Of a stretch of 64,000 nt of DNA, positions 45,956 to 63,133 are shown piece by piece. Location of the stretch: the IMG/VR virus record IMGVR_UViG_3300021957_000004, one strand, 5' to 3'. The notes under the pieces are model-generated. The model ran no database searches. It was not told where the DNA came from and saw only the letters and a list, made by a program, of their open reading frames with translations. Position 1 is the first letter of the stretch. Every line of letters starts with the position of its first letter. The translations under genes and the position numbers were made by a program. Source of the stretch: a virus.

Positions 45956-45975
45956 TTCCTTGATTGAAAAAAAGG

Positions 45976-46004
45976 TTTACAAACCTTCTAAACTATGGTA
46001 TAAT
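45976..46004 (+). promoter_or_regulatory. Early promoter for DNA polymerase
   Basis: ggTTTACA-17-tggTATAAT; implies the true start is ATG 46014. Confidence 0.85.
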
Positions 46005-46013
46005 ATACTCACT

Positions 46014-48575
46014 ATGCAATTTTATACAAACATTTCTCGCTATGGCAATATGCTACTTTATCGTGGTATAGAAAACGGCCAAAGAGTTCAAAAGAAAATT
46101 AAATACAAGCCCACATTATTCGTGGCAACCACCAAAGCAACCAAATGGAAATCCTTAGATGGATATCCTGTTGCTCCCATACAATTCGAATCTATGCGTG
46201 ATGCTAAAGATTGGGTTCAGCAAAACAAAGATGTAGCTGGCCGTAAGATCTTTGGTAATACTAAACATCAGGCAGCTCTGGCTAACGATCTATTTCCTGG
46301 CCATATAGAGTTTGATAGATCTAAAATTAACGTAACCACTATTGATATAGAAGTTCAATCCGATGATGGATTCCCAGAACCTTCTGCAGCAGCTAAAATA
46401 GTTACGGCTATATGTCTTAAAAATAATATCGACAATACATATTATGTTTGGGGCTTAGGCGATTACGATGTAAGTAAATCCCTAATGAAAACCAATCGCG
46501 TGATCTATAAAAAATGTGTCGATGAACAAGAACTTCTTATAGACTTTATTAATCATTGGGCTACACCTTCGCACACGCCCGATGTTATTACTGGCTGGAA
46601 CTCTAAGTTCTTCGATATACCTTATTTGGTTAATCGTATTCGTAGAGTCTTCGGCCCAGATCTTGGCGAACAAAATATTAAAAAGCTTTCACCTTGGGGT
46701 ATGGTAGAATCCAGAGAGGTGGCAATTGGCTACAAATCTAGCAACAGAAATCAAACGTATGACTTCCAGGGTATATCCCAAATGGATTATATGGAAGTAT
46801 TTAAAAAGTTTGGTTATGCTTATGGTCAACAAGAATCATATTCACTTAATAATATTGCTCACGTAGTTCTTGGCGAAGAGAAACTATCATACGAAGAACA
46901 CGGATCACTATTCGATTTATATAAAGCTGATCATCAAAAGTTTATTGATTATAATATTAAAGATGTAGAATTGGTAGATCGCTTCGAGGATAAAATGGGT
47001 TTAATTACCCTTGGCCTTACTATGGCATACCGAGGCGGAGTTAACTATACTGACGTATTTGGTACTACCGCAATATGGGATTCTATTATCTTCCGTGATC
47101 TATATCAAAACAACGTAATAGTTCCTTTCCCGAAAGATCAACTCAAAGGTGATTACCCTGGTGGTTATGTAAAAGAACCACAGGTTGGCATGCACGATCA
47201 TGTAGTTAGTTTCGATTTAAACTCTCTATATCCATCGCTCATTATGCAATACAATATGTCACCAGAAACAATTCTGAATAAAACAACAGCAGGAGTAGAT
47301 GTAGAAAATGTATTAAAAGCAACTAAGATCGAAAGATCATCAGATGAATGCATAGCAGTTGGCGGACAACATTTTAGAACAGATGTCCAAGGTGTATTAC
47401 CTAAGATCATCGAAGAGATGTACACTGAACGGGTAGATGTTAAAAAAGCTATGATTAAAGCTCAGCAAGAATTACAGAGAATAGACAAAAGTGACAAACA
47501 AGAACTCTACAGAATACAAAAAGAAATATCGCTCAACGAAAATAGACAAATGGCAATTAAGATTCTTCTTAATAGTCTTTACGGTGCTCTCGGCAATCGT
47601 TATTTTAGGTTCTTCGACCAACGGGTCGCAGAAGCAATTACGCTATCCGGACAAGCCATCATACGATGGGGTGAAAATGCAGCCAATGATTACCTAAACA
47701 AGGCCCTTAAAACCTCCTCAGACTACGTCTTAGCAATAGATACTGATTCATTATATATTGGGTTAGGTCCTTTAGTAGATGCGGTTAAACCGGATAATCC
47801 TATAGATTTCCTAGATAAAGTTGGCCGTGAAGCCATAGAACCTGTCTTTGAAAAAGCATATCAAAAGTTCTACGACATATTTGGCGGCTACGGAAACAAA
47901 ATGGTTATGTCCCGAGAGGTTATAGCAGATCGTGGTATATATCTGGCTAAGAAAAGATATATTCTAAATGTGTTAGATAATGAAGGCGTTAGATATGCAC
48001 AACCTAAAATTAAAACAATTGGCGTAGAAGCTAATAAAAGTTCTACTCCGCAAGCTTGCCGTGAAGCTCTAAAAGAAATGTTTAAGCTAATTATTTCTTC
48101 TGATGAAGCTACAGTCCAGGCAGCAGTACAACAATTCAAAGATCATTACTTTGCTCTTAGACCAGACCAGATTGCTTTCCCGCGTGGTGCTAATAATATT
48201 ACTGGTTGCATAGAAAGACGTACGTATAGAAACCAAGCGGGCGAGCAGGTTACTACCGAATTTTATAAGAAAGGTACACCGATTCACGTGCGTGCGGCCC
48301 TCGCGTACAACTGGCTAAGAAAAGATCTAGATCTAAAACAATATCCAGAACTTAGAAATGGCGATAAGATTAAATTCTTATATTTAAAAGAAGGTAAGTT
48401 TAAGCAAAATGTAATTGCTTTCCCAGACTTTCTCCCAAAAGAATTTAACTTAGAACAACACATTGATAAGGAATTACAATTCCAAAAAACATTTACCGAT
48501 GCAATAGAACCAATTCTAAATGCTATTGGCTGGACATCAGTCAAAGTTAATTCACTGGAGGATTTCTTTGGATAA
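46014..48575 (+). CDS. gp43: Family B DNA polymerase gp43
   Basis: DIEV exonuclease motif, SFDLNSLYPS, KILLNSLYGALG, IDTDS, KKRY. Confidence 0.97.
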   Translation: MQFYTNISRYGNMLLYRGIENGQRVQKKIKYKPTLFVATTKATKWKSLDGYPVAPIQFESMRDAKDWVQQNKDVAGRKIFGNTKHQAALANDLFPGHIEFDRSKINVTTIDIEVQSDDGFPEPSAAAKIVTAICLKNNIDNTYYVWGLGDYDVSKSLMKTNRVIYKKCVDEQELLIDFINHWATPSHTPDVITGWNSKFFDIPYLVNRIRRVFGPDLGEQNIKKLSPWGMVESREVAIGYKSSNRNQTYDFQGISQMDYMEVFKKFGYAYGQQESYSLNNIAHVVLGEEKLSYEEHGSLFDLYKADHQKFIDYNIKDVELVDRFEDKMGLITLGLTMAYRGGVNYTDVFGTTAIWDSIIFRDLYQNNVIVPFPKDQLKGDYPGGYVKEPQVGMHDHVVSFDLNSLYPSLIMQYNMSPETILNKTTAGVDVENVLKATKIERSSDECIAVGGQHFRTDVQGVLPKIIEEMYTERVDVKKAMIKAQQELQRIDKSDKQELYRIQKEISLNENRQMAIKILLNSLYGALGNRYFRFFDQRVAEAITLSGQAIIRWGENAANDYLNKALKTSSDYVLAIDTDSLYIGLGPLVDAVKPDNPIDFLDKVGREAIEPVFEKAYQKFYDIFGGYGNKMVMSREVIADRGIYLAKKRYILNVLDNEGVRYAQPKIKTIGVEANKSSTPQACREALKEMFKLIISSDEATVQAAVQQFKDHYFALRPDQIAFPRGANNITGCIERRTYRNQAGEQVTTEFYKKGTPIHVRAALAYNWLRKDLDLKQYPELRNGDKIKFLYLKEGKFKQNVIAFPDFLPKEFNLEQHIDKELQFQKTFTDAIEPILNAIGWTSVKVNSLEDFFG

Positions 48576-48900
48576 GATAATATATGTAGGTACTAAGCCA
48601 GGTAATTTCCCACCAGAGAAATCACCGACTATTCGTAGGATAACTAAATGGTCAGAGCAGGCTGGAGTACAAGATTGGGATTGGACCAATCTATCAGATA
48701 ACAACATGATAGAAAAGATTAAAGGTTGCAAAGTAATAGCTATGGGTAATGAAGTCCATAATTACTTTGTAAAGAATAAAATAGAACACTTAAAGGTTCC
48801 ACATCCATCTGGATTGAACCGAATGTGGAATAACCCAGAACTAGAACCTTCGGTAATAGATCAAATTAGGGGTTTACATTTAAATGAAACTATGGTATAA
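48568..48900 (+). CDS. Minimal uracil-DNA-glycosylase-superfamily-like protein
   Basis: YVGTKPG, VIAMG and VPHPSGLN motifs; TTG start with GGAGG SD overlapping the gp43 end. Confidence 0.55.
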   Translation: MDKIIYVGTKPGNFPPEKSPTIRRITKWSEQAGVQDWDWTNLSDNNMIEKIKGCKVIAMGNEVHNYFVKNKIEHLKVPHPSGLNRMWNNPELEPSVIDQIRGLHLNETMV

Positions 48901-48923: not shown

Positions 48924-49223
48924 ATGAAAAATATACAATTAGTTAGGCTTACATCCGGCGAAGAAATAATCGCTAACGTAGATCTAAATGGTATCGATAC
49001 TGATACTATAATCTTAAAAGATAGCATTGTTCTTATCCCAGCCGGCGAAGGCAAGATTGGATTTATGCCTTTTATGCCATACACTGAAGCTAAAGATGGA
49101 TTAGAAATTGATCTTAAGTTTGTTATGTTTATGGTCGAACCAAACAAACAGCTAGTGGAACAACACAGAGCAGCTACTTCTGAAATACAGATAGCAACAC
49201 CAAACACAGGAATCATAGTATAA
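48924..49223 (+). CDS. Conserved T4-like hypothetical protein (Sm-like)
   Basis: LVRLTSGEEIIA; GF.PFMPY. Confidence 0.65.
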   Translation: MKNIQLVRLTSGEEIIANVDLNGIDTDTIILKDSIVLIPAGEGKIGFMPFMPYTEAKDGLEIDLKFVMFMVEPNKQLVEQHRAATSEIQIATPNTGIIV

Positions 49224-49624
49224 TGTCTAAGAACTGGGTACAAGATATAGCTTTAATGCATAGCAAATATGGCGTTAAACAATGGGTTGCAGATAACCCT
49301 GAAAAGCTAGAACAGCTATTGCATTTTCGTATATCATTCTTAAAAGAAGAATATGAAGAAACATTTAAAGCAGTTGGAGAAAAAGATCCTGAAGAAATAG
49401 TAGATGGTCTAATAGATCTATGCGTTGTAGCAATTGGAACATTAGATGCATTCGGTATTGATTCCGAAAAAGCATGGGATGAAGTACTAAAAGCCAATAT
49501 GAAAAAAGAAGTTGGAGTAAAAGAAACAAGACCTAACCCTTTAGGTTTACCAGATTTGATTAAACCCGAAGGTTGGACAGCTCCATCACACGAGGATAAC
49601 CATGGTAAGTTGCACAATATTTAA
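49223..49624 (+). CDS. MazG-like all-alpha NTP pyrophosphohydrolase
   Basis: LKEEYEE, EIVDGLIDL, WDEVLKANM.K, LIKPEGW. Confidence 0.8.
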   Translation: MSKNWVQDIALMHSKYGVKQWVADNPEKLEQLLHFRISFLKEEYEETFKAVGEKDPEEIVDGLIDLCVVAIGTLDAFGIDSEKAWDEVLKANMKKEVGVKETRPNPLGLPDLIKPEGWTAPSHEDNHGKLHNI

Positions 49625-50519
49625 TAGCATTTATGATAACAAAACAGACAAAAGAATGGACTACGAGTCCTTCGAAGAGTTTGAAGCAGTCCTCGTTGGA
49701 CTACACAACTCTGACAAATATTCTAAAAAGTCTGAAGCTCCTCTTATCAGTCCTGCTACATATTTGCCTGATAGTACTCGTGCTAACGATAACGTGGTTT
49801 CTTGGGGCGGTTTTGGTATTCTTGATGTCGATGACTTTGTAGGTGAAATGAATGAGATCGAAAAGAAATACGAGCAATATAGATATTTCTGTTATTCGAC
49901 TGCTAGTTCTAGCTTAACAAATCCTAAATTTCGTTTAGTATTTCCTTTAACCCAATGGGTGAATAAAGAAGATATTAAACACTTTTGGTTTGCACTAAAT
50001 AAAGAAATCGGTGATATCGCTGATGCACAAACTAAAGACCTTTCCCGAATGTATTATGTTCCATCGCAATATAAAGATGCGAACAACTTCTGCTTTTCAC
50101 ACGATGGTGATATAATGGATCCGACAGTATTAATGTCTAAGCATCCATATCTAAATCCAGCAGAATCTTTCTTTGATAGATTACCTAATAAAATAAAAGA
50201 AGGTTTAATTGAACATAGAAAGTCACAATTAAAAAACACAAACTATACCTGGACATCTTATTTTGATTGTCCATTTGTTAATAAAAAACAGGTCGAAGAA
50301 TACAAAGGTATTTCCGGCACTGGTTGGTATTTAAAAATGTATCAGATAATGGTTTCAACCGCAGGCAATGCAATGCAACGTGGTTATCCTATTACTCCTG
50401 AAGAAATTGCCCATATCTGTAGATCTTTAGATATGGACACAGGTAATTGGTATGCAAAAAGAGATCTAGTAACAGAAGCAAATAGAGCAATCGACTTTGT
50501 CTTTAAAAATAATTTATAA
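49602..50519 (+). CDS. AEP/PrimPol-like primase
   Basis: SPATY, R.NDNV, LDVDD, YSTAS, KFRLVFPL, KDLSRMYYVP. Confidence 0.7.
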   Translation: MVSCTIFNSIYDNKTDKRMDYESFEEFEAVLVGLHNSDKYSKKSEAPLISPATYLPDSTRANDNVVSWGGFGILDVDDFVGEMNEIEKKYEQYRYFCYSTASSSLTNPKFRLVFPLTQWVNKEDIKHFWFALNKEIGDIADAQTKDLSRMYYVPSQYKDANNFCFSHDGDIMDPTVLMSKHPYLNPAESFFDRLPNKIKEGLIEHRKSQLKNTNYTWTSYFDCPFVNKKQVEEYKGISGTGWYLKMYQIMVSTAGNAMQRGYPITPEEIAHICRSLDMDTGNWYAKRDLVTEANRAIDFVFKNNL

Positions 50520-50614: not shown

Positions 50615-50908
50615 ATGGGAATACAAGTACTAGGTGATAATGTTTTAATCGCCGAAACAGAAAAAGAAGAACAAACAGCAGGTGGGATTATTCTTACTGA
50701 AGCTATTGATAAAGGTAATAAACCAGGATTGGTATTAGCAATTGGTGATTATATCCAACAAGATAATGCAGATCCAGAAAACGTATTTGCTAAGATAGAA
50801 CCAGGAAACAGAGTGTTTGTTAAATGGTCAGAGGCAATGCCAGTTAACGTCGAAGGACAAGCTGCGGTATTAATAGATCGAAATCACATCAAAGCGATAT
50901 TAAGTTAA
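50615..50908 (+). CDS. groES: Co-chaperonin GroES-like
   Basis: LGDNVLI, EQTAGGIILT mobile loop, G.VLAIG. Confidence 0.85.
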   Translation: MGIQVLGDNVLIAETEKEEQTAGGIILTEAIDKGNKPGLVLAIGDYIQQDNADPENVFAKIEPGNRVFVKWSEAMPVNVEGQAAVLIDRNHIKAILS

Positions 50909-50914
50909 AAGGGG

Positions 50915-50943
50915 TTTACAAATACCTGAAACTATGGTATAAT
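50915..50943 (+). promoter_or_regulatory. Early promoter
   Basis: ggggTTTACA-17-tggTATAAT. Confidence 0.85.
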
Positions 50944-50954
50944 ACATCTATATT

Positions 50955-51467
50955 ATGGAAAAATTAATCGAATATATTAACACCTTAGACTTAAAAATAA
51001 GTCAGGAAATGTTTGACCGACATGATGAAGAATATGCTACTACTAAACGTGGCTATTCTTCTCGTGCTAATCTGGATTCAGAATATCTAGAAGACATGGT
51101 CGTAGAAAATGTAAAAGGCGCTAAAGAAGTTACTGGCAAAGATAGATATTTTGCCGATATTAAATACAAAGGTATGGTTATAGACTTTAAAGAAATAGCT
51201 TCTGTTTGGTATAACTTACAACATGATTACATTAGATATATGGATGCTAACCGCAAAGGTAAGCTTACCCATTTTCTATTTTTTAAAAGCAATAGACTAA
51301 GATACGACAACAATCTTCCAGATGTTATCCCAGTAGATTATGATCTAAAGTTTGAATTTTTAGGTATTTACGATGTAGATACCGTTATGAGTGGATTGGA
51401 TAGAAACATGAAACGAGTGAATGTATATAATTTAGGAGACAATTATGGCAGGCGAATCAACATTTAA
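50955..51467 (+). CDS. Hypothetical protein, possible PD-(D/E)xK nuclease
   Basis: SEYLE...ADI....IDFK spacing resembles the restriction-endonuclease fold. Confidence 0.45.
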   Translation: MEKLIEYINTLDLKISQEMFDRHDEEYATTKRGYSSRANLDSEYLEDMVVENVKGAKEVTGKDRYFADIKYKGMVIDFKEIASVWYNLQHDYIRYMDANRKGKLTHFLFFKSNRLRYDNNLPDVIPVDYDLKFEFLGIYDVDTVMSGLDRNMKRVNVYNLGDNYGRRINI

Positions 51468-52356
51468 AAAAGTAGGTATCACAGATACACTACATCATAG
51501 AATGGAAATACCAGAGGATTATCATGGTAAAGATATTATTATTGGTGATTGGTTGGGCGAAATATATCACACACCTACAGATCAATATTACACACAAAGT
51601 ACTAGATCACAATACTATTTTCCAGATGTAAAACCAGAAGGTGGATTCGATAAACATATTTGTCCAGGACATTGGTCTGGATATAGATGGGCAGTTCAAC
51701 AATTTACAAATCCTGGTGATTATGTTTTAGATCCTACAGTAGGTACAGGAACAGCAGTTGTAGAATCTATGAATCATGGAAGACATGGCGTAGGAATAGA
51801 ATTAGAATTCTCAGAGATTACAAGAAGAACAATTCAAGTACAAACAGACAGAGGTGCACCAGGTAATGGTACTATTATAGAAGGTGACGCTAGAGATCTA
51901 CACGAACACGTTGGAGATCAACAATTTGATATGGTAATTAATGGAACACCTTATCCAGTTCTTGGCGGTGGTCAATCAGATGCACCAGAAAGAGGTATGA
52001 CTTCTAAAGGTTTAGGAGCATCGATACAATATCAGAAAGATAAAAACGTTGGTGTTCTAAAAGGTAAAGTATACTGGGAAACCATACTAGAAATATATAC
52101 AGCTTCTATAGAGAAATTAAAACCAGGCGGAAAGTTTATTACGCTTATTAAAGATCCAACACAAAAGAAAGCTCCATGGTTATTACACAAAATGGTTGCT
52201 GAATTACTAATGGAAAATCTTCCAGTAAAACCTTATGGTACTTTTGTACACAAGCATTTGCCACAAACTTTGTTTATGAATACATATCCAAAACAATGGC
52301 CAGATGCAAAACAGATTCCCTTATATCAAACAGGTACAGTGCTTGAAAAATATTAG
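51445..52356 (+). CDS. SAM-dependent amino-methyltransferase-like protein (N4/N6 DNA MTase fold, atypical motif IV)
   Basis: VLDPTVGTGT, GIELE, EGDAR, FDMVINGTPYP, LKPGG. Confidence 0.75.
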   Translation: MAGESTFKKVGITDTLHHRMEIPEDYHGKDIIIGDWLGEIYHTPTDQYYTQSTRSQYYFPDVKPEGGFDKHICPGHWSGYRWAVQQFTNPGDYVLDPTVGTGTAVVESMNHGRHGVGIELEFSEITRRTIQVQTDRGAPGNGTIIEGDARDLHEHVGDQQFDMVINGTPYPVLGGGQSDAPERGMTSKGLGASIQYQKDKNVGVLKGKVYWETILEIYTASIEKLKPGGKFITLIKDPTQKKAPWLLHKMVAELLMENLPVKPYGTFVHKHLPQTLFMNTYPKQWPDAKQIPLYQTGTVLEKY

Positions 52357-52359
52357 GGG

Positions 52360-52388
52360 TTTACTTTTAACTAAAACTATGGTATAAT
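52360..52388 (+). promoter_or_regulatory. Early promoter, 7 nt before ATG 52396
   Basis: ggggTTTACT-17-tggTATAAT. Confidence 0.85.
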
Positions 52389-52395
52389 ATACATT

Positions 52396-52743
52396 ATGAA
52401 ACCACTACACATACTTAAACAAGCCGCTGATCTTATAGCTAAGAAAGGCAATGACTACCAAAATCCTAAATCTAGGATTAGACAATCAGACTACTATCCA
52501 AATGGCGCACAAACCATTTTAGATATTATGACTGGCAAAGTTAATCGTATGCATTCTGTTTTGGATGCTATGAAAGACGATGAAAACTATATGGAAAACT
52601 TCGAATCACTACAAGATTCTGCAATAGATTTAATTAACTATTCTGCCTTCTTCTCATCATATTTAGATTATGATATTGACGGCCAAACCCCAGACAAAGA
52701 CATATTTAACAGGAACATAATCAGAGATGACAATAGCAAGTAA
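52396..52743 (+). CDS. Nucleotide-modification-associated all-alpha protein (DUF1599/Nmad1-like)
   Basis: KKGNDY, K..R, DSAIDLINYSAF. Confidence 0.65.
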   Translation: MKPLHILKQAADLIAKKGNDYQNPKSRIRQSDYYPNGAQTILDIMTGKVNRMHSVLDAMKDDENYMENFESLQDSAIDLINYSAFFSSYLDYDIDGQTPDKDIFNRNIIRDDNSK

Positions 52744-53458
52744 TTTAAAACTAGGATTACACGACTTAAGAAGTAATTTATTAAATCTTGGTTATGAAAT
52801 AGAAACCGAAAGATGGCAAGGTGGAACAGAACATCCTGCCTTCCTAGAAATATTACATGCAAGTATGAAAGCAAATATGTACGATAATGCAGAAGAAGCT
52901 AGTACAGAATTAAAAGCTACCCAACCATGGGCAGATATTCATTTCGACGAAAGAGTAGGTGGTATACCTTGCAATCCACCGCCATCACATACAATGTGGT
53001 TAAAAGACACAGATAAATATTTAATGGATACGGCTTTTTCACATAGCTATCCAGAAAGAATGTGGCAAGATACAGAACAAATGGGAGTTAGATTTAATAT
53101 AGCAGATCTAAACACAGCAGTTAAACTATTACAAAAAGAACCTAAAACAAGGCAATGTTATATACCAATCTGGTTTCCAGAAGATGGTACAGCCGCTCTC
53201 GCGGGCGAACGCGTCCCGTGCACGTTCGGGTGGCATTTTATGTTACGTGATGGTAAATTACATTGTGCATATCATATGCGATCATGCGATGTAATGCGAC
53301 ACTTACATAACGATTTATATTTCGCTAATAGGTTATGCTTATGGTTAATAGAACAATCAGGCTTAGATGCAGTACCAGGAATCATGCATTTCTCTGCTAG
53401 CTCTTTACATTGCTTTACAGTAGATAAATATGGACTTAACAATTTGGTAAATGAATAA
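52727..53458 (+). CDS. Thymidylate-synthase homologue, dCMP-type (hydroxymethylase-like)
   Basis: RVPCT catalytic Cys; MRSCDVMRHLHND with Asp at the E. coli ThyA Asn177 position; SLH. Confidence 0.8.
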   Translation: MTIASNLKLGLHDLRSNLLNLGYEIETERWQGGTEHPAFLEILHASMKANMYDNAEEASTELKATQPWADIHFDERVGGIPCNPPPSHTMWLKDTDKYLMDTAFSHSYPERMWQDTEQMGVRFNIADLNTAVKLLQKEPKTRQCYIPIWFPEDGTAALAGERVPCTFGWHFMLRDGKLHCAYHMRSCDVMRHLHNDLYFANRLCLWLIEQSGLDAVPGIMHFSASSLHCFTVDKYGLNNLVNE

Positions 53459-54774
53459 TGTGCGGATTTTTAATAAGCAATAGAACACAAACAACAGCTA
53501 ATGGAATGCAATCTCTTAAAGAGATGGAATACCGTGGGCTAAGAACTAAGTATCGTGGATATAAAACATGGAAAGATTATGATATGTTCCATACTGCTTT
53601 ACCTATGATCGATGCAGATCCAGCTATAGCAATCCAACCTATTCAATACGATGACGAACCACCTTCACTTTTTGTTGGTGAAATATTTAATTATAAAGAC
53701 TTTGGTGAATATGCAAGCGATGCTCATATGATACATCAAAGATATAGAGAAGAACTTTCACATGAATTCTTTCATAAGTTCGATGGCTTCTGGAGTTATG
53801 TTACATTTTTTAATGAACATCCAATTGCTTATACAGATTTCCTAGGTATTAAACCAATCTATTATCGTAAAGATGTAGAAGTTATGGCATCAGAACCTGA
53901 TGTACTAAAAGCCTATGGCCCAGTCACACCGGATGAAATATTCCATTCTAATGTTATGAAATGGGGTTATGATCCCCAAGGCGGAACACCATGGAATGAA
54001 ATACATCAACTAAAGCCTGGACACTTTTTATATAAAGGTCGAGAATATCCTTATTGGGATTGGGCTTCAGTTCCGGTGACCAATTTGTACGATGACCTAG
54101 CCTTAGCGGTTAAATTAAGATTAGGTGGATTCAGAGAAGCAGCCGTTCTACTGTCAGGTGGGTTAGACTCCACTATCGTATACCAACTTATTAAACAGCA
54201 AGGACTAAACGTTACAGCTATTCATGTTGATAACCACGAAGAAAAATATGCTAAGATGGTAGAAGCCGATTTAGTAAAAGTTACTTTAGAAGAGGTTAGC
54301 GATCAGGATGCTATTAGAATACACCAAAGCCCTGTAGATCTTGGATCAGTTAAACCACAAATTGCTATGGCAAGAAAGCTAAAAGAAGAAGGTTACCATA
54401 TGGTATTAACCGGCGATGGCGCAGATGAACTATTTGGTGGCTATAGAAGAGCAGAAGAATATGATTCTCAAATGTCAGATGTGTTCTGTGAATTACCTTT
54501 TTACCATTTGCCTAAGCTAGATAGAACTATGATGAGATCAACTGTAGAGCTACGTGCTCCATTCTTATCGCCAGCAGTTATAGTTCATGCATTATCTATT
54601 CCATACGAAGATAGAAACGGCGAAAAGAAAGTATTAAAAGAAACATTTAAAGATATTGTTCCACCTAAAATACTAAATCGTAAAAAAGAACCATTAAAGA
54701 CAGATGCTATACGTGAAGATAAAATGAAGCAAAGACAAATTAATAATAAAATATGGAGAGAGCTTTATGAGTGA
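53458..54774 (+). CDS. Asparagine synthetase B-like glutamine amidotransferase
   Basis: N-terminal MCG, GEIFNY, D.LGIKPIYY, LLSGGLDS, TGDGADELFGGY, ELRAPFL. Confidence 0.9.
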   Translation: MCGFLISNRTQTTANGMQSLKEMEYRGLRTKYRGYKTWKDYDMFHTALPMIDADPAIAIQPIQYDDEPPSLFVGEIFNYKDFGEYASDAHMIHQRYREELSHEFFHKFDGFWSYVTFFNEHPIAYTDFLGIKPIYYRKDVEVMASEPDVLKAYGPVTPDEIFHSNVMKWGYDPQGGTPWNEIHQLKPGHFLYKGREYPYWDWASVPVTNLYDDLALAVKLRLGGFREAAVLLSGGLDSTIVYQLIKQQGLNVTAIHVDNHEEKYAKMVEADLVKVTLEEVSDQDAIRIHQSPVDLGSVKPQIAMARKLKEEGYHMVLTGDGADELFGGYRRAEEYDSQMSDVFCELPFYHLPKLDRTMMRSTVELRAPFLSPAVIVHALSIPYEDRNGEKKVLKETFKDIVPPKILNRKKEPLKTDAIREDKMKQRQINNKIWRELYE

Positions 54775-55213
54775 TAAATGGGATAAAAGATACTTAGCTT
54801 TAGCTGAGCAGGTCGCTGGTTGGAGTAAAGATCCAAGTACGCAGGTTGGCGCAGTTGCTGTAAACGATCAAGGTAATGTTGTTGCTCAAGGATATAATGG
54901 ATTTCCAAGAGGCATAGAAGACACCGAATTAAGATATAATGACAGAGAGCTTAAATATAAATATGTGGTACATGCAGAAACAAACTGTATATACAATGCG
55001 GCATTTAATGGTAATTCATTAGATGGATGTACAATGTATGTTTGGCCATTACCAGTATGCCATGAATGTGCAAAAGCCATTATACAATCAGGAGTTTGCA
55101 GAGTTGTGTCCCCACAATTTACTAATTCCGAAACCGAGCTAAGATGGAAAGATTCATGCTCACAAACCCTGGATATGTTTGAAGAAGCTTATATCCAATA
55201 TGATTTCATTTAG
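54767..55213 (+). CDS. dCMP deaminase
   Basis: SKDPSTQVGA, GYNGFPRG, HAETN, PVCHECAK. Confidence 0.93.
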   Translation: MSDKWDKRYLALAEQVAGWSKDPSTQVGAVAVNDQGNVVAQGYNGFPRGIEDTELRYNDRELKYKYVVHAETNCIYNAAFNGNSLDGCTMYVWPLPVCHECAKAIIQSGVCRVVSPQFTNSETELRWKDSCSQTLDMFEEAYIQYDFI

Positions 55214-55216
55214 GGG

Positions 55217-55245
55217 TTTACAAACACCTTAATCTGTGGTATAAT
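55217..55245 (+). promoter_or_regulatory. Early promoter
   Basis: ggggTTTACA-17-tggTATAAT. Confidence 0.85.
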
Positions 55246-55276: not shown

Positions 55277-55528
55277 ATGCCAAGTATAAATTTAATGCCT
55301 AGGAAAAGACATCCTAAGGATAAAAGACCTTCTAGCCCAATGCCATTCGATATTGCGTTAAGAAAGTTTAGAAAGGCCTGCGATAGAGCAGGTATTGTTA
55401 ACGAAGTTCGTAAAAGAGAATTTTATGAAAAACCAACCGCAAAGCGCAAACGTAAAAAAGCAGAGGCAGTAGCCCGAACCAGAAAAGAAGAGCGTATGAA
55501 TAAACTAGGACCAGCAAGGAGATATTAA
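55277..55528 (+). CDS. rpsU: Ribosomal protein bS21 with a basic Pro-rich N-terminal insertion
   Basis: [39 protein letters not shown]. Confidence 0.92.
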
Positions 55529-55529
55529 T

Positions 55530-56579
55530 ATGGGAATAATGGATAAACTAAAAAAGAATAGCAGGATTAAAGGTACAGCAGTACTAGAAGATTCTATTTA
55601 CTTTGGAGAAAAAGACGTAGTAACGACAGAAGTTCCTATGATTAATGTTGCTTTAAGTGGCGATATAGAAGGTGGGCTTACAAACGGTTTAACTGTTTTA
55701 GCAGGTCCAAGTAAACATTTTAAAACATCATTTGCCTTATTAATGGCAGGTGCTTATATGAAAGAACACGATGATGCAGTTCTAATGTTCTATGATTCAG
55801 AGTTTGGATCACCACAATCATATTTCGAATCATTCGGTATCGATACTTCAAGAGTATTACATACACCAATCACAGACGTAGAACAACTAAAATTCGATCT
55901 AGTTAACCAATTAGATGAGATAGAACGCGACGATAAAGTTATTATTATCATAGATTCTATTGGTAACTTAGCATCTAAAAAAGAATTAGAAGATGCTTTA
56001 AACGAAAAATCAGTTGCAGATATGTCAAGAGCTAAAGCTTTAAAGGGATTATTCAGGATGGTTACTCCTTATCTTACCATGAAGAATATCCCTTTGCTTG
56101 CTGTGAATCACACTTATCAAGAAATGGGATTATTTCCTAAAGCAATCGTATCAGGCGGAACAGGTATTTACTATTCAGCAGATAACATTTGGATTATAGG
56201 AAGACAACAACAAAAAGTTGGAACAGAAGTTAAAGGTTATAACTTTGTTATTAATGTAGAGAAATCTAGATTCGTAAAAGAAAAAAGCAAAGTACCTATT
56301 TCGGTTACCTGGGAAGGTGGCATTAGCCAATATAGTGGACTACTAGATGTAGCACTGGCAGGTGGATATGTACAAAAACCTAACGTTGGTTGGTATTGTA
56401 GAGTCGATAGAGAAACTGGCGAACTAGTACAACCAAAGGTTAGAGAGAAAGATACCCTCACAGAAGAATTCTGGGATCCAATATTCACTGGCACAGATTT
56501 TAAAAAGTTTGTTAAAGCCCACTACTCTATTGGACATAAACCAATGTTAGATGTAGAAATAGATTTACAAGAAGAGTAA
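55530..56579 (+). CDS. uvsX: RecA-like recombinase UvsX
   Basis: AGPSKHFKT, FYDSEFG, DSIGNLAS, KSRFVKEK. Confidence 0.96.
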   Translation: MGIMDKLKKNSRIKGTAVLEDSIYFGEKDVVTTEVPMINVALSGDIEGGLTNGLTVLAGPSKHFKTSFALLMAGAYMKEHDDAVLMFYDSEFGSPQSYFESFGIDTSRVLHTPITDVEQLKFDLVNQLDEIERDDKVIIIIDSIGNLASKKELEDALNEKSVADMSRAKALKGLFRMVTPYLTMKNIPLLAVNHTYQEMGLFPKAIVSGGTGIYYSADNIWIIGRQQQKVGTEVKGYNFVINVEKSRFVKEKSKVPISVTWEGGISQYSGLLDVALAGGYVQKPNVGWYCRVDRETGELVQPKVREKDTLTEEFWDPIFTGTDFKKFVKAHYSIGHKPMLDVEIDLQEE

Positions 56580-56583
56580 AATA

Positions 56584-56916
56584 GTGTATAATATAACACA
56601 TAATGATTATACCTTTGTTGAACATGAGGATATCGATTTCTACGGAATTAGATTAAATAATAAATACAAAGGCGTAAAACTTATATACGGTAAAGTCGGG
56701 ATTAAAGAATCCCCTGAACTAGACATAGCAACTTTATCTTTTACATATCAGATCCAAGATCCATCAGATCACGATCATGACGAATTATGTAAAGATGAAT
56801 ATTTTAATAACTATATCGGAGCCGTTTTACAACATATAATTGATGAAGCGGTAGAAGACAAATTAAACGAGGATATAATTGGACATAACAAATCAAATAC
56901 AGACACATTCGCTTAA
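56584..56916 (+). CDS. gp40-like head vertex assembly chaperone
   Basis: Syntenic between uvsX and gp41; YGKV..LSF.Y. Confidence 0.55.
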   Translation: MYNITHNDYTFVEHEDIDFYGIRLNNKYKGVKLIYGKVGIKESPELDIATLSFTYQIQDPSDHDHDELCKDEYFNNYIGAVLQHIIDEAVEDKLNEDIIGHNKSNTDTFA

Positions 56917-58267
56917 TCACTTATTAAACAACGAGGATTATTGCAGGCGTGTTATACCTTTCTTAAAGAAAGAATACTTTGACGAATCACATAAAGTTGT
57001 ATTCGATCTTATGGTTAAGTTTGTTGCAGCTCATAACAAACTACCTACAGCCAAAGTTCTAGAGTTAGAACTACAAAAACTAAAACTACCGCATGAACAA
57101 TTAAATTCATCTGCGGTATTAATTAATGAGCTAAGAACTAAATCAGATGTTGATACTGAATATTTAATTAATGAAACTGAGAAATGGTGCAAAGAAAAAG
57201 CAGTCTATAATGCTATTATGGAATCCATTCAGATCATTGATGGTAAAACCGAAAAGAGCGACGGAGCTATCCCAGAGATATTATCCGAAGCTCTTGGTAC
57301 ATCTTTCGACCAAGCTATTGGTCATGATTATATTGACAACTCAGATGATAGGTTTGATTTCTATAATAAGAAAGAAAACAGAATACCATTTGATCTAGAT
57401 TATATGAATAAGATTACGAAGGGAGGCTTACCCAATAAGACCTTAAACATTGCGCTAGCAGGTACCGGCGTGGGTAAGTCCCTATTCATGTGTCATTGTG
57501 CAGCATCTAATTTACAACTCGGCAAAAACGTTTTATACATTACAATGGAAATGGCAGAAGAACGTATAGCAGAAAGAATAGATGCTAACCTAATGGATTA
57601 TCCAATACAATCTCTTGGTACTTTACCAAAGAATGTGTTTAACAGTAAGATCGAAAAGATTGCTCAGGCATCTATCGGTAAGCTTATTGTTAAAGAATAT
57701 CCAACAGGCGCAGCACACACTGGACATTTCAGAGCTTTACTCAATGAGTTAAAGCTAAAAAAGAACTTCAAGCCCGATATAATTTATATCGATTACTTGA
57801 ACATTTGTGCTTCTTCCCGTATGCGTGGGCTCGGAGGAAGTATAAATAGTTATTCGTACATCAAAGCTATCGCAGAGGAAATGCGTGGTCTTGCTGTCGA
57901 ATTTAATGTGCCGATAATGTCAGCAACCCAGACCACGAGGTCTGGATTCGGTAATACCGACGTTGGCTTAGAGGACACTTCGGAATCATTTGGATTACCG
58001 GCGACAGCTGATCTAATGTTTGCTCTAATATCTACAGAGGAACTTGATGAGCTAGGTCAAATTCTGGTAAAACAGTTGAAGAATCGTTATAACGATCCGA
58101 CCAAATACAAACGCTTTGTTATTGGTATAGATCGTTCCCGCATGAAACTATACGATGTAGAGGAATCCGCTCAGACAGATATTATGTCTGACATGATACC
58201 GGATAAACCAATAAATAATTTTGGTAATAGGGATTCGAAAGATACCTTTACCGATTTTAAAATATAG
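56879..58267 (+). CDS. gp41: Replicative helicase gp41
   Basis: LAGTGVGKSL, ITMEMAEE, IDYLNIC, SESFGLPATAD, KQLKNRY. Confidence 0.96.
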   Translation: MDITNQIQTHSLNHLLNNEDYCRRVIPFLKKEYFDESHKVVFDLMVKFVAAHNKLPTAKVLELELQKLKLPHEQLNSSAVLINELRTKSDVDTEYLINETEKWCKEKAVYNAIMESIQIIDGKTEKSDGAIPEILSEALGTSFDQAIGHDYIDNSDDRFDFYNKKENRIPFDLDYMNKITKGGLPNKTLNIALAGTGVGKSLFMCHCAASNLQLGKNVLYITMEMAEERIAERIDANLMDYPIQSLGTLPKNVFNSKIEKIAQASIGKLIVKEYPTGAAHTGHFRALLNELKLKKNFKPDIIYIDYLNICASSRMRGLGGSINSYSYIKAIAEEMRGLAVEFNVPIMSATQTTRSGFGNTDVGLEDTSESFGLPATADLMFALISTEELDELGQILVKQLKNRYNDPTKYKRFVIGIDRSRMKLYDVEESAQTDIMSDMIPDKPINNFGNRDSKDTFTDFKI

Positions 58268-58463: not shown

Positions 58464-59087
58464 ATGTTTAAGAAATTATTAATGCCATTATTTGTGGCAA
58501 CTTGTTTCTCACCTTTCACGTTTGCTGATGTTTCAGGTAAAGTTGGAGTAATGTCTGACTATATGTGGAGAGGGCAAACACAATCCATGGGAGATACTTC
58601 CTACAATCTAGGCATAGATTATAATCACGACAACGGATTATACGGAAGCGCTTGGATGGGACAGGTCGACTTTGGAGACGAAGCTGAATGGGAATATGAT
58701 TTAGCAGTAGGATATAATCTTACCGTTACTGATAATCTTTCACTCGGTGGTGGAGTTATACAATACTCTTATAATGAAGGCTATGATGATATTGAAGAGC
58801 TTTTTGTTAACGCAAGTTACAAGAACTCAAGTATATATTACTATGTAGATAGCGACAACTCAGATAATACATATATGGAATTTACGCAACATCTTGCGTT
58901 TCTTTCAGATGTACCTGGGGATTTCTATGTTAAATATGGCGACTTTAACAATGGGGATGATTGGGCAGCGCTCAAGTATTCCAACATGGTAGCTCCGAAT
59001 GTACAATTAAGTTTGCACATTATGGATGGAGTTAGACATGGAGATGCCACAGATAGCATGGTACTAGCTATGCATTACCTTTTCTAA
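58464..59087 (+). CDS. Outer-membrane beta-barrel protein (TIGR02001/Gcw_chp, TorF-like porin)
   Basis: Signal peptide ending TFA-D, SDYMWRGQTQ, GLYGSAW...VDF, EYDL..GY, terminal Y-x-F. Confidence 0.8.
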   Translation: MFKKLLMPLFVATCFSPFTFADVSGKVGVMSDYMWRGQTQSMGDTSYNLGIDYNHDNGLYGSAWMGQVDFGDEAEWEYDLAVGYNLTVTDNLSLGGGVIQYSYNEGYDDIEELFVNASYKNSSIYYYVDSDNSDNTYMEFTQHLAFLSDVPGDFYVKYGDFNNGDDWAALKYSNMVAPNVQLSLHIMDGVRHGDATDSMVLAMHYLF

Positions 59088-61894: not shown

Positions 61895-63133
61895 ATGATA
61901 TCATTTAAAAACCATAACCTTACAGAAGCCAAAAACACTCACATGACTCATATAGAGGATTTAGTGTTGGATGGCGGAGTTAAGGGAGCCCGCCAAGCTA
62001 TCAACGCTCTACGCAGTATGAGAGATATGTTGAGTGGTCACGCAAAATCACCTGTAGACGTGACCGTAAAATGGGACGGGGCTCCCGCCGTATTCGCAGG
62101 TGAAGATCCAAGAGATGGATCGTTCTTCGTAGCTAAAAAAGGAATCTTTAATGCAGATCCTAAAGTATATAAAAGCCACGAAGATATAAAGGCTGATACC
62201 TCAGGTGATCTATCCAAAAAGCTTATTATGGCTTTTGATGGATTAAAGGACTTAGGTATCAAGGGTGTAATACAAGGTGACTTTATGTTTGATAAATCGG
62301 ACCTTAAAGGTGAAACGATTAACGGACAAAAGATGATTACCTTTCACCCAAACACTATTGTTTATGCAGTACCATATGGATCTAAATTAGAGAAAGATAT
62401 ATCTAAAGCAGATGTTGGTATTGTATGGCATACATCTTATAAAGGTGGAACATTCGAAACTATGCAAGCTTCTTTTGGCGGTGACATAGTTGGTAAATTA
62501 AAAAAGAGTTCTAAGGTATGGCAGGTAAATGCAGACCTAGAAGAGCTATCAGGTAAAGCTACATTTACCGCAGCAGACAATATGAAAGTAACTAAATTGT
62601 TATCTGAAGCTGGTAAACTATTCCAAAAGATATCTTCTGGGGTATTAAAAGAATTAGAAAACAATAAAGAATTAAATTTAGTTATTAATGTTTATAATAA
62701 TAGTATGGTGAGAAAAGGCCAAAGAATTAAAGACGAGAAGAAACACGCTAAGGGATTAATCCAGTTTGTTACTGATCGATACGCTAAACAAATCGATAAG
62801 CGTAGTTCACAGAAAGGAAAAGATATACAAATAGGTAAAAGAGATGAATTATTATCGTTTTTCTCTACTAGTAACTTAAAAAACTTAGAAAATGTCTTTA
62901 AATTACAGAATTATCTTGTAGACAGTAAATTAATTATTATAAATAAACTTAACAAACTAAATAAAATCGGAACGTTTGTTAAAACAACATCCGGATTTAA
63001 AGTAACCAACCCAGAAGGTTTTGTTGCTATAGATCGTATGGAAGGTGGAGCAGTTAAGCTTGTTGATAGATTGGAATTTTCTGCCAACAACTTTAGCAAA
63101 GATATTATAAAAGGTTGGGATAATCCTAACTAA
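61895..63133 (+). CDS. Conserved T4-like protein with ligase/nucleotidyltransferase-type motifs
   Basis: TVKWDGAP (KxDG), QGDFMF, EGFVA, VKLVDR. Confidence 0.6.
   Translation: MISFKNHNLTEAKNTHMTHIEDLVLDGGVKGARQAINALRSMRDMLSGHAKSPVDVTVKWDGAPAVFAGEDPRDGSFFVAKKGIFNADPKVYKSHEDIKADTSGDLSKKLIMAFDGLKDLGIKGVIQGDFMFDKSDLKGETINGQKMITFHPNTIVYAVPYGSKLEKDISKADVGIVWHTSYKGGTFETMQASFGGDIVGKLKKSSKVWQVNADLEELSGKATFTAADNMKVTKLLSEAGKLFQKISSGVLKELENNKELNLVINVYNNSMVRKGQRIKDEKKHAKGLIQFVTDRYAKQIDKRSSQKGKDIQIGKRDELLSFFSTSNLKNLENVFKLQNYLVDSKLIIINKLNKLNKIGTFVKTTSGFKVTNPEGFVAIDRMEGGAVKLVDRLEFSANNFSKDIIKGWDNPN

Follow-up and report, generated by a model that had tools for sequence, protein, structure and literature searches.

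A thymidylate synthase (TS) homologue and an AsnB-like glutamine-dependent amidotransferase are encoded next to each other in IMG/VR virus record IMGVR_UViG_3300021957_000004, of which we analysed a stretch of 64,000 nucleotides (the window). The source is an uncultured, marine, T4-like phage, and the window is AT-rich (~35% G+C). This gene pair recurs in unrelated phage lineages, and therefore it probably makes an undescribed nitrogen-bearing cytosine for phage DNA. We consider it probable that the operon containing both genes (52396-55213, the second of two adjacent operons) encodes a nucleotide-level pathway, through which a cytosine nucleotide modified at C5 and bearing nitrogen would take the place of deoxycytidine monophosphate (dCMP), or be added to it, in the supply for phage DNA. 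Hypermodification of its DNA lets a phage overcome restriction and CRISPR defences, and it has been a source of enzymes for epigenetic sequencing and DNA chemistry. To our knowledge, the known cytosine hypermodifications all start from 5-methyl-, 5-hydroxymethyl- or 5-hydroxy-cytosine, to which sugars or carbamoyl groups are added, and we know of no description of ATP- and glutamine-dependent nitrogen installation on a cytosine nucleotide.

The TS homologue (52727-53458, + strand, 243 aa) was assigned by Pfam, alignments and individual residues to a subtype with Arg at position 143 and Asp at position 177 (R143/D177). Its match to PF00303 just passes the threshold (30.5 bits, cut-off 24.3), and it failed all of the TS equivalog models of NCBIfam (16-33 bits against cut-offs of 108-405). 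The translation contains VPC and RSCDVMRHLHND. When it was aligned with E. coli ThyA and T4 gp42, the Cys fell on C146 and the Asp on the N177 position, and VPC and HND matched C148 and D179 of gp42. W80, C146, R166, S167 and D169 were all retained in alignments with ThyA, T4 gp42, the Xp12-type enzyme and relatives. Asp at position 177 is the switch from deoxyuridine monophosphate (dUMP) to dCMP specificity (PMC13326640, PMC8670742). With Asp at this position, the TS homologue is predicted to use dCMP as its substrate and to modify it at C5. The catalytic Cys, the Asp at the N177 position and the dCMP-type reading had all been proposed in an earlier reading of the same DNA (the preliminary description), and the alignments and the failed ThyA equivalogs agree with it. 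The parallel with gp42 drawn there held for the Cys and the Asp, but not for the acidic residue at position 143 or the Glu at E58/E60.

Position 143 is Arg in the TS homologue, Leu in ThyA, Asp in gp42 and Asn in Xp12. In two MAFFT alignments, the E58 position, which precedes the invariant Trp61 by three residues, is not occupied by Glu; this call is less certain because the identity is only 14-20%. Because of the Arg at 143 and the lack of Glu at E58, the product cannot simply be assumed to be 5-hydroxymethyl-dCMP. R143, D169 and D177 were common to all 62 distinct TS homologues taken from loci with the AsnB-like gene, and were also present in the cultured phages Muddy, PMBT14 and Huwbert. 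The 5-hydroxy-dCMP synthases of the RB69 gp48 / DLP3 gp80 type are defined by D169N (PMC13326640). The nearest solved structure to the TS homologue, PDB 9iqu, is of this kind and reads RSQN at the motif. A 5-hydroxy-dCMP synthase was nevertheless rejected as the identity of the TS homologue, because its RSCD motif keeps Asp169 and thus lacks D169N. As a separate observation, the TS homologue of phage PaMx74 (L227 1198-2094) has Asp at N177 and Asn at 143, like Xp12, and its neighbours are the same HAD hydrolase, deaminase and DHFR, which suggests that it may be dCMP-directed.

The family of the AsnB-like protein was searched exhaustively among 1.84 billion representatives, and 192 clusters (50% identity) were found below E 1e-30, nearly all of 420-480 aa. 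In a profile-based scan of IMG/VR with custom hidden Markov models (HMMs), at least 552 stretches were found and 80 loci were kept. The AsnB-like proteins of these loci were clustered at 55% identity, and 12 clusters had at least 3 kb of flank. An R143/D177 TS lay within ~7 kb of the AsnB-like gene in 11 of the 12 clusters, at every such locus. No R143/D177 TS was present at 14 control loci with ordinary AsnB-like genes (25-29% identity, 450-565 aa, several of them from giant viruses), and a canonical ThyA-type gene was present at 2 of these 14. The co-occurrence of an Asp-type TS with AsnB, for which an HMM and neighbourhood search had been suggested earlier, was thus found across unrelated backbones and in none of the controls. 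The pairwise identities of the AsnB-like proteins and the TS homologues co-varied (Spearman 0.66), which we count as no more than mild support, given that the pairs are not independent of each other. Our results showed that functional coupling of the TS homologue and the AsnB-like protein is well supported.

Close relatives of the window kept the second operon intact. At 47 IMG/VR loci with 56-100% AsnB-like identity, which are syntenic with the window, the genes for an Nmad1-like protein, the TS homologue, the AsnB-like protein and a dCMP deaminase stood in that order wherever flank exists. The Nmad1-like gene was kept in relatives down to ~53% identity. In a relative with 58% identity (contigs of 51-127 kb, three shown), the TS, AsnB-like and deaminase genes were kept. 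This relative (L048) also has a ThyX gene at L048:12540-13223, directly after its gp41-like helicase gene; the window has a Gcw_chp-family ORF (58464-59087) at the same place, and tblastn found no ThyX in the window.

The contigs of six distant AsnB-like members (31-45% identity) were examined next to these relatives. Another T4-like phage (L051) has the genes for TS, a deoxynucleoside monophosphate (dNMP)-kinase-like protein, the AsnB-like protein and deaminase, plus a true ThyA of 286 aa. A PolA-type phage (L059) has MazG, DUF6378, methyltransferase, TS, AsnB-like and deaminase genes. L059 is one of three PolA/SNF2/DUF2800 phages, and the other two carry related sets: kinase-like, AsnB-like, dUTPase_2, methyltransferase, TS and deaminase genes in L057, and AsnB-like, dUTPase_2, C5-methylase, TS and deaminase genes in L056. 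The short contigs L053 and L055 contain kinase-like, AsnB-like, dUTPase_2, uracil-DNA glycosylase (UDG) and both types of methylase genes. Adjacent genes include those for dUTPase_2 or MazG. The dNMP-kinase-like gene is directly upstream of the AsnB-like gene in L053, L057, L072 and a lineage of large phages, and it stands between the TS and AsnB-like genes in L051. In L053 and L055, full UDG genes or a UDG-kinase fusion adjoin the AsnB-like gene. A 218-aa ORF of L053 was considered as a TS homologue and rejected, since it is not one.

The exceptional cluster of the census is the large-phage lineage, which is syntenic and comprises 23 loci, and in whose one complete genome (348 kb) the TS is located elsewhere. 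This genome encodes a 261-aa TS of the same subtype ~90 kb from the AsnB-like gene, with no obviously related neighbours, and a canonical ThyA as well. Its AsnB-like gene directly follows a dNMP-kinase-like gene (hhalign 96.5%). Throughout the group (L067-L096, for example L067:6377-12940), the AsnB-like gene lies between the dNMP-kinase-like gene and at least six conserved ORFs, which had no family match except for a NUDIX protein. Apart from the kinase-like protein, no Pfam or hhalign link to the TS, deaminase, methyltransferase or pyrophosphatase families was found among these neighbours.

The distance of ~90 kb in the large phages would fit a different role, in which the AsnB-like protein acts on DNA bases after replication, on tRNA, or on a carboxylate of the host envelope or of a host metabolite, and in which it adjoins the TS only because early genes tend to cluster. 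The modules repeatedly contain UDG-family genes and C5 and N6/N4-type methyltransferases, whose usual substrate is DNA, and others have observed amidotransferases close to genes of post-replicative thymidine hypermodification (PMC8989533; bioRxiv 10.1101/2025.08.14.668559). However, the AsnB-like gene stays next to a TS of this subtype on unrelated backbones and despite many rearrangements, and where the TS is far away, the gene immediately upstream is still the dNMP-kinase-like one. The AsnB-like protein is acidic (isoelectric point, pI, 5.7) and has no added nucleic-acid-binding domain, and inspection of the loci revealed no genes of the 5-HMUDK or aGPT-Pplase type. We consider such a role unlikely, and prefer the conversion of a cytosine nucleotide by the TS and the AsnB-like protein together.

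The AsnB-like protein itself (AsnBL; 53458-54774, + strand, 438 aa) was classified by Pfam, alignment and fold as a phage-specific, glutamine-dependent PP-loop amidotransferase with a putative non-aspartate acceptor site. Pfam reported Asn_synthase (1.6e-32) and GATase_7. In PHROG the family corresponds to phrog_16728, which is annotated as unknown function. Its AlphaFold2 (AF2) model, built from an alignment of 80 sequences, had a mean predicted local distance difference test (pLDDT) score of 96 and showed the two-domain architecture of AsnB. The top Foldseek match was E. coli AsnB (1ct9, E 2.6e-24, template modelling (TM) score 0.77), followed by human ASNS, TsnB9, beta-lactam synthetase and carbapenam synthetase (CarA). 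No longer fusion protein containing the AsnB-like domain was found at E 1e-30 or better, which is weak evidence.

E. coli AsnB was aligned with 129 diverse members of the family, which are 33-59% identical to the query. The N-terminal Cys was present in 115 of the 129 members, and the remainder look like truncated starts. G75, E76, D98, the SGGLDS PP-loop, K429 and K449 were kept, the last three being invariant. On the other hand, AsnB residues T322, R324, E348, R375, K376, D384 and N389, which line the aspartate / aspartyl-adenylate site, were changed to D, G, D, D, V/I, H and D, and these changes are mostly invariant; of the residues of this site, which also include R325 and R387, only the position of R387 is still basic. 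In the phage protein, D320 occupies the E348 position and H350 the D384 position, and the signature of the family reads DLGS...GDGADE...YHLPR. The retained Cys, PP-loop and ATP-site lysines together with the replaced acceptor positions suggest that adenylation and ammonia delivery are retained while the acceptor is other than aspartate. The pattern says that the acceptor is probably something else.

The obvious alternative is a compact asparagine synthetase carried as an auxiliary metabolic gene, with the TS homologue working independently of it as a simple methylase or hydroxymethylase of dCMP. Asparagine synthetases are indeed the top matches of the AsnB-like protein in Pfam, NCBIfam and the PDB, and the source databases label its relatives 'asparagine synthase'. 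Its scores are far under the equivalog cut-offs, however (162.2 bits for TIGR01536, cut-off 267.1; 108 for NF006949, cut-off 499), and it is only ~20% identical to E. coli AsnB and ~115 residues shorter (438 versus 554 aa). The presumed aspartate contacts are replaced throughout the family, which appears restricted to viruses and is tied to a single TS subtype; the ordinary AsnB-like genes on viral contigs show no such tie. We regard an asparagine synthetase as very improbable, and the comparisons support that the AsnB-like protein is not an ordinary one. The preliminary description had likewise concluded that it does not serve asparagine supply.

The distribution of the family is consistent with this. 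Among 185,579 representative cellular genomes, the best relatives were only 23-31% identical to the AsnB-like protein. All sequences of the family came from viruses or metagenomes, some at least of marine origin, and they represent several phage backbones; the family appears to be virus-only. Protein searches of 50,697 cultured-phage genomes found neither an AsnB-like gene of this family nor the methyltransferase associated with it, and a search of the cultured phages with the DNA of the whole region gave no match.

From the observed gene content, residues, fold and co-occurrence we infer a chemistry, the amination or amidation of a C5-substituted dCMP, and with it a substrate, a product and an order of steps. 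In the first step, the Cys of the R143/D177 TS would attack C6 of dCMP, and a one-carbon (or other) unit would be added at C5. In the second step, the N-terminal Cys of the AsnB-like protein would free ammonia from glutamine, and the PP-loop and ATP would adenylate an oxygen of the TS product, which the nitrogen would then replace. In the simplest version, the oxygen of 5-hydroxymethyl-dCMP would be adenylated and displaced by ammonia to give 5-aminomethyl-dCMP. In a second version, the R143 TS would attach a carboxylate-bearing group at C5, from which the AsnB-like protein would make a carboxamide by classical AsnB chemistry. Conversion of the product toward the triphosphate would fall to a dNMP-kinase-like enzyme, whose gene is adjacent in relatives and lies elsewhere in the genome of this phage. 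At the same time, canonical deoxycytidine triphosphate (dCTP) and dCMP would be depleted, and dUMP supplied, by the dCMP deaminase together with the MazG and Nmad1-like pyrophosphatases. The amino-methyltransferase of the first operon could optionally methylate the new nitrogen, or it may be an ordinary DNA methylase travelling with the module. The kept glutamine and ATP machinery, the acidic, His-containing pocket, the low pI and the adjacency of TS and kinase genes argue that the AsnB-like protein converts the TS product as a mononucleotide.

An aminomethyl-type product takes the larger part of our confidence in this pathway, being possible but doubtful when taken alone, and a carboxamide-type product takes a smaller part and is rather unlikely by itself. 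Our most specific proposal is that abundant marine T4-like phages and several unrelated phage lineages may make a new natural DNA base (5-aminomethyl-, 5-methylaminomethyl- or carboxamide-type cytosine) at the mononucleotide level, through the first AsnB-type amidotransferase known to act on a nucleotide, whose substrate would be supplied by TS homologues of a new class, R143/D177. This proposal is tentative, and we would sooner expect some part of it to fail than all of it to stand.

The amidotransferase could also build no side chain at all. In a reaction like that of GMP synthetase or CTP synthase, it would adenylate a ring carbonyl of a deoxynucleotide, for example O4 of a 5-substituted dUMP or deoxythymidine monophosphate (dTMP) to give a 5-substituted dCMP, or O6 of deoxyguanosine monophosphate (dGMP) to give 2-aminoadenine. 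Ring carbonyls are established substrates for adenylation by GuaA, ThiI, MnmA and TilS, which are outside the AsnB branch, and the PP-loop region of the AsnB-like protein weakly matched the models of ThiI, MnmA and QueC. The Asp/His-rich acceptor pocket is as expected for base recognition, and the neighbours include MazG-like NTPases and the dNMP-kinase-like gene. Nevertheless, the partner TS is of the dCMP type (D177), so that no dUMP-derived intermediate is needed, and the co-encoded dCMP deaminase would run the reverse reaction. Moreover, the linkage is with pyrimidine, not purine, enzymes, and by fold and closest relatives the protein stands with the carboxylate-activating enzymes of the AsnB branch. 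Ring amination is, in our judgement, quite unlikely compared with a nitrogen added to the C5 substituent.

Several points weigh against the proposed C5 pathway. The Arg at the product-determining position 143 and the missing Glu at E58 count here. All characterised members of the AsnB branch that we know of adenylate carboxylates, not alcohols, and the aminomethyl route therefore needs unprecedented chemistry; the carboxylate-bearing TS product on which the carboxamide route depends is hypothetical. In the clade of this phage, Ala and Val stand in place of R49 and N74 at the glutamine site, so the glutaminase activity of its AsnB-like protein is not assured; in the family as a whole R49 is kept in 98 of the 129 members, and position 74 is mostly Val. 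Not every locus with the AsnB-like gene has a dCMP deaminase or the methyltransferase, and the latter is absent from many. Early nucleotide-metabolism genes often cluster in phages, which may inflate the apparent linkage within a lineage. Finally, the TS subtype occurs without any AsnB-like gene in Muddy, PMBT14 and Huwbert.

The R143/D177 TS subtype was found in cultured phages at 33-42% identity, including Muddy, many Gordonia phages, Huwbert, Zuko, PMBT14, Serbin and others. In these phages the TS gene is surrounded by genes for a dNMP kinase, a dUTPase or MazG, a dCMP deaminase and an uncharacterised protein of 262-342 aa. Since the TS subtype is present there without an AsnB-like gene, the amidotransferase would be an add-on. 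The core module may accordingly be read as the TS subtype with a kinase, a nucleoside triphosphate pyrophosphatase and a deaminase, and the AsnB-like protein as a tailoring enzyme added to it, so far in uncultured viruses only. As in T4, dCMP would be modified at C5 by such a core module and then phosphorylated, while the pool of canonical dCTP and dCMP is drained. The protein of 262-342 aa is encoded directly upstream of TS in Muddy (L065, 3033-3926), Huwbert (L064, 3602-4630) and PMBT14 (L063, 4213-5001). Those of Muddy and Huwbert are homologous to each other, and that of PMBT14 is not homologous to them. None of the three had a Pfam match, and they are therefore silent on the TS product; they may represent other ways of tailoring that product.

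The six ORFs of the module are all on the + strand, at 50955-51467, 51445-52356, 52396-52743, 52727-53458, 53458-54774 and 54767-55213, as the preliminary description had placed them. Successive ORFs overlap by 23 nt in the 50955/51445 pair and by 17, 1 and 8 nt among the genes of 52396-55213. Four near-consensus, TG-extended -10 promoter-like sites were found in + strand gaps, at 48873, 50915, 52360 and 55217. The total of promoter-like matches was no higher than in shuffles, and only the placement of the best four is informative. A sigma-70-like promoter (TTTACA-17-TATAAT, TG-extended, 50915-50943, + strand) lies in the gap before the ORF at 50955 and would head the first operon, and another (TTTACT-17-TATAAT, TG-extended, 52360-52388, + strand) would head the second. 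A promoter-like site at 55217-55245 (+ strand) stands at the end of the second operon, before a gene for S21. The sites at 50915, 52360 and 55217 therefore point to two transcription units, and the two adjacent operons with overlapping genes described earlier were recovered in this way.

In the second operon, the ORF at 52396-52743 encodes a small all-alpha Nmad1/DUF1599-like protein of 115 aa, which is MazG-superfamily-like. It matched phrog_1485 (2e-10) and phrog_18404, a 'hydrolase' with a MazG-like link (2e-8). Nmad domains were reportedly defined by Iyer et al. in 2013. The DUF1599/Nmad1-like label given to it before is weakly supported: it scored 15.2 bits against PF07659 (DUF1599), below the cut-off of 25, while weak DUF1599 matches were found in 9 of 11 orthologues (best E 6e-4). 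The last gene (54767-55213, 148 aa) encodes a dCMP deaminase (dCMP_cyt_deam_1 2.4e-21, 76 bits against a cut-off of 25; phrog_174 1.5e-45), in which the zinc motifs HAE and PCxxC are intact (HAETN, PVCHEC). Upstream of the module, the ORF at 49223-49624 (+ strand) encodes a MazG/PRA-PH-type all-alpha nucleotide pyrophosphohydrolase (Pfam PRA-PH 1.6e-10, phrog_671 1.9e-25), with homologues in the L059 and PMBT14 modules, and is a likely pool-shaping partner. Of the two all-alpha pyrophosphatase-like proteins named in the preliminary description, the one at 49223 was thus identified as PRA-PH/MazG, and that at 52396 has only weak DUF1599/MazG-like affinities.

The first operon is more variable. 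Its first ORF (50955-51467, 170 aa) seems to be an accessory gene of close relatives, being found only in those with at least ~68% AsnB-like identity. It had no match in Pfam or NCBIfam and matched in PHROG only a family of unknown function (E 5e-4), so that its designation as a possible nuclease was not borne out. The second ORF (51445-52356, 303 aa) encodes an S-adenosylmethionine (SAM)-dependent amino-methyltransferase with a partial match to N6_N4_Mtase (4.8e-8); PF01555 covers only the SAM-binding part. An N-terminal Cys/His-rich segment precedes motif I (DPTVGTGT), which is followed by motif IV (NGTPY). In the family motif IV reads (N/H/G/S)(P/T/S/N)PY, with NPPY, HPPY, SNPY or GSPY in homologues. 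The AF2 model (pLDDT 83) matched only the generic Rossmann-methyltransferase fold (TM ~0.45), which is too weak to tell the substrate, and its weak neighbours were Trm11/TrmN/MnmM-type enzymes, m2G tRNA/rRNA methyltransferases and an amide-N-methyltransferase. The amino-methyltransferase fold assigned before is matched in the SAM-binding part; the canonical motif IV of N6/N4 DNA amino-methyltransferases is (D/N/S)PP(Y/F/W), compared with NGTPY in this protein. Homologues adjoin the AsnB-like gene in L055, L057, L059, L077, L099, L101 and L119, while the gene is lost in relatives at ~58-64% AsnB-like identity. The upstream operon is therefore no constant component of the module, but a homologous methyltransferase recurs in distant phages. 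The methyltransferase is probably an optional tailoring enzyme or a DNA methylase of the module.

The module is surrounded by replication genes, which encode a family-B DNA polymerase (45960-48575), UvsX (55530-56579) and a gp41-like DnaB helicase (56879-58267). By UvsX, the closest cultured phage is C48C1 (73% identity). A small ORF (48520-48900) overlaps the end of the polymerase gene and has a weak match to the UDG superfamily (PF03167, E 0.001). A 305-aa protein (49602-50519), which matches a phage DNA primase family (phrog_9765, E 2e-48) and has no Pfam match, is encoded between the MazG gene and a GroES/Cpn10-like gene (50615-50908). Right after the second operon, with its own promoter-like site, is the gene of a ribosomal protein S21 homologue (55277-55528, Pfam 3.5e-17), which is kept in most syntenic relatives. 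Further downstream, a full-length DUF6267 protein (61895-63133, Pfam 1.1e-100) is encoded, which also occurs in the relative L048.

If the proposed base exists, it could be common in nature, as the AsnB-like family is large and spread over several backbones, and it could explain sequencing or amplification biases for these phages. The presence of the R143/D177 TS in cultured phages, including the therapeutic mycobacteriophage Muddy, offers a tractable entry point. In the literature, which here does not include the original Nmad-domain survey, there was no paper in which an AsnB-type enzyme is connected with a TS homologue, and likewise none on aminomethyl- or carbamoyl-cytosine in DNA. This agrees with the preliminary description, to whose author no characterised pathway with this composition was known.

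Among known systems, the closest is the hydroxymethyl-dCMP system of T4, which consists of gp42, the gp1 dNMP kinase, the gp56 dCTPase and the Cd dCMP deaminase. The module shares with it a TS homologue with the catalytic Cys and the Asp at the N177 position, a dCMP deaminase, an all-alpha NTP pyrophosphatase, a dNMP kinase (in relatives), the T4-like backbone and, as proposed here, action at the mononucleotide level. It differs in that position 143 holds Arg rather than Asp/Glu and the E58/E60 position holds no Glu, in the AsnB-like gene between the TS and deaminase genes, and in that no glucosyltransferase was seen in the window. Like the Xp12-type dCMP methyltransferase and the 5-hydroxy-dCMP synthases of RB69 and DLP3, the TS homologue has N177D, would be dCMP-directed and is encoded beside a phage dCMP deaminase; unlike them, it combines R143 with D169, whereas Xp12 has Asn at 143 and the synthases have D169N (PMC13326640).

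The AsnB-like protein shares the two-domain fold, the Cys, SGGLDS, K429 and K449 with AsnB/ASNS, beta-lactam synthetase, carbapenam synthetase and TsnB9. It is unlike AsnB in T322D, R324G, E348D, R375D, K376V/I, D384H and N389D, in its virus-only distribution and in its linkage to nucleotide-metabolism genes. By their sequences, the two proteins are neither an AsnB equivalog nor ThyA, nor a gp42-type hydroxymethylase with an acidic residue at 143, nor a D169N 5-hydroxy-dCMP synthase.

Thymidine hypermodification by 5-HMUDK with aGPT-Pplase/AADT follows a similar logic, in which the oxygen of a C5-hydroxymethyl group is activated and displaced by a nitrogen nucleophile, and uncharacterised amidotransferases are associated with its genes (PMC8989533). 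Unlike the pathway proposed here, it acts on 5-hydroxymethyl-deoxyuridine (5-hmdU) in DNA, by phosphorylation rather than adenylation and with a dUMP-type TS, and its signature genes were not seen in the loci inspected. The modules of Muddy, PMBT14 and Huwbert have the same R143/D177 TS (35-42% identity), a dNMP kinase, a dUTPase or MazG, and a dCMP deaminase; in place of the AsnB-like gene and a homologous methyltransferase, they have the protein of 262-342 aa upstream of TS. In conclusion, the module is best compared to a T4 hydroxymethyl-dCMP-like system with an added amidotransferase step, and it would belong to the phage pyrimidine hypermodifications that are seeded by a TS homologue.

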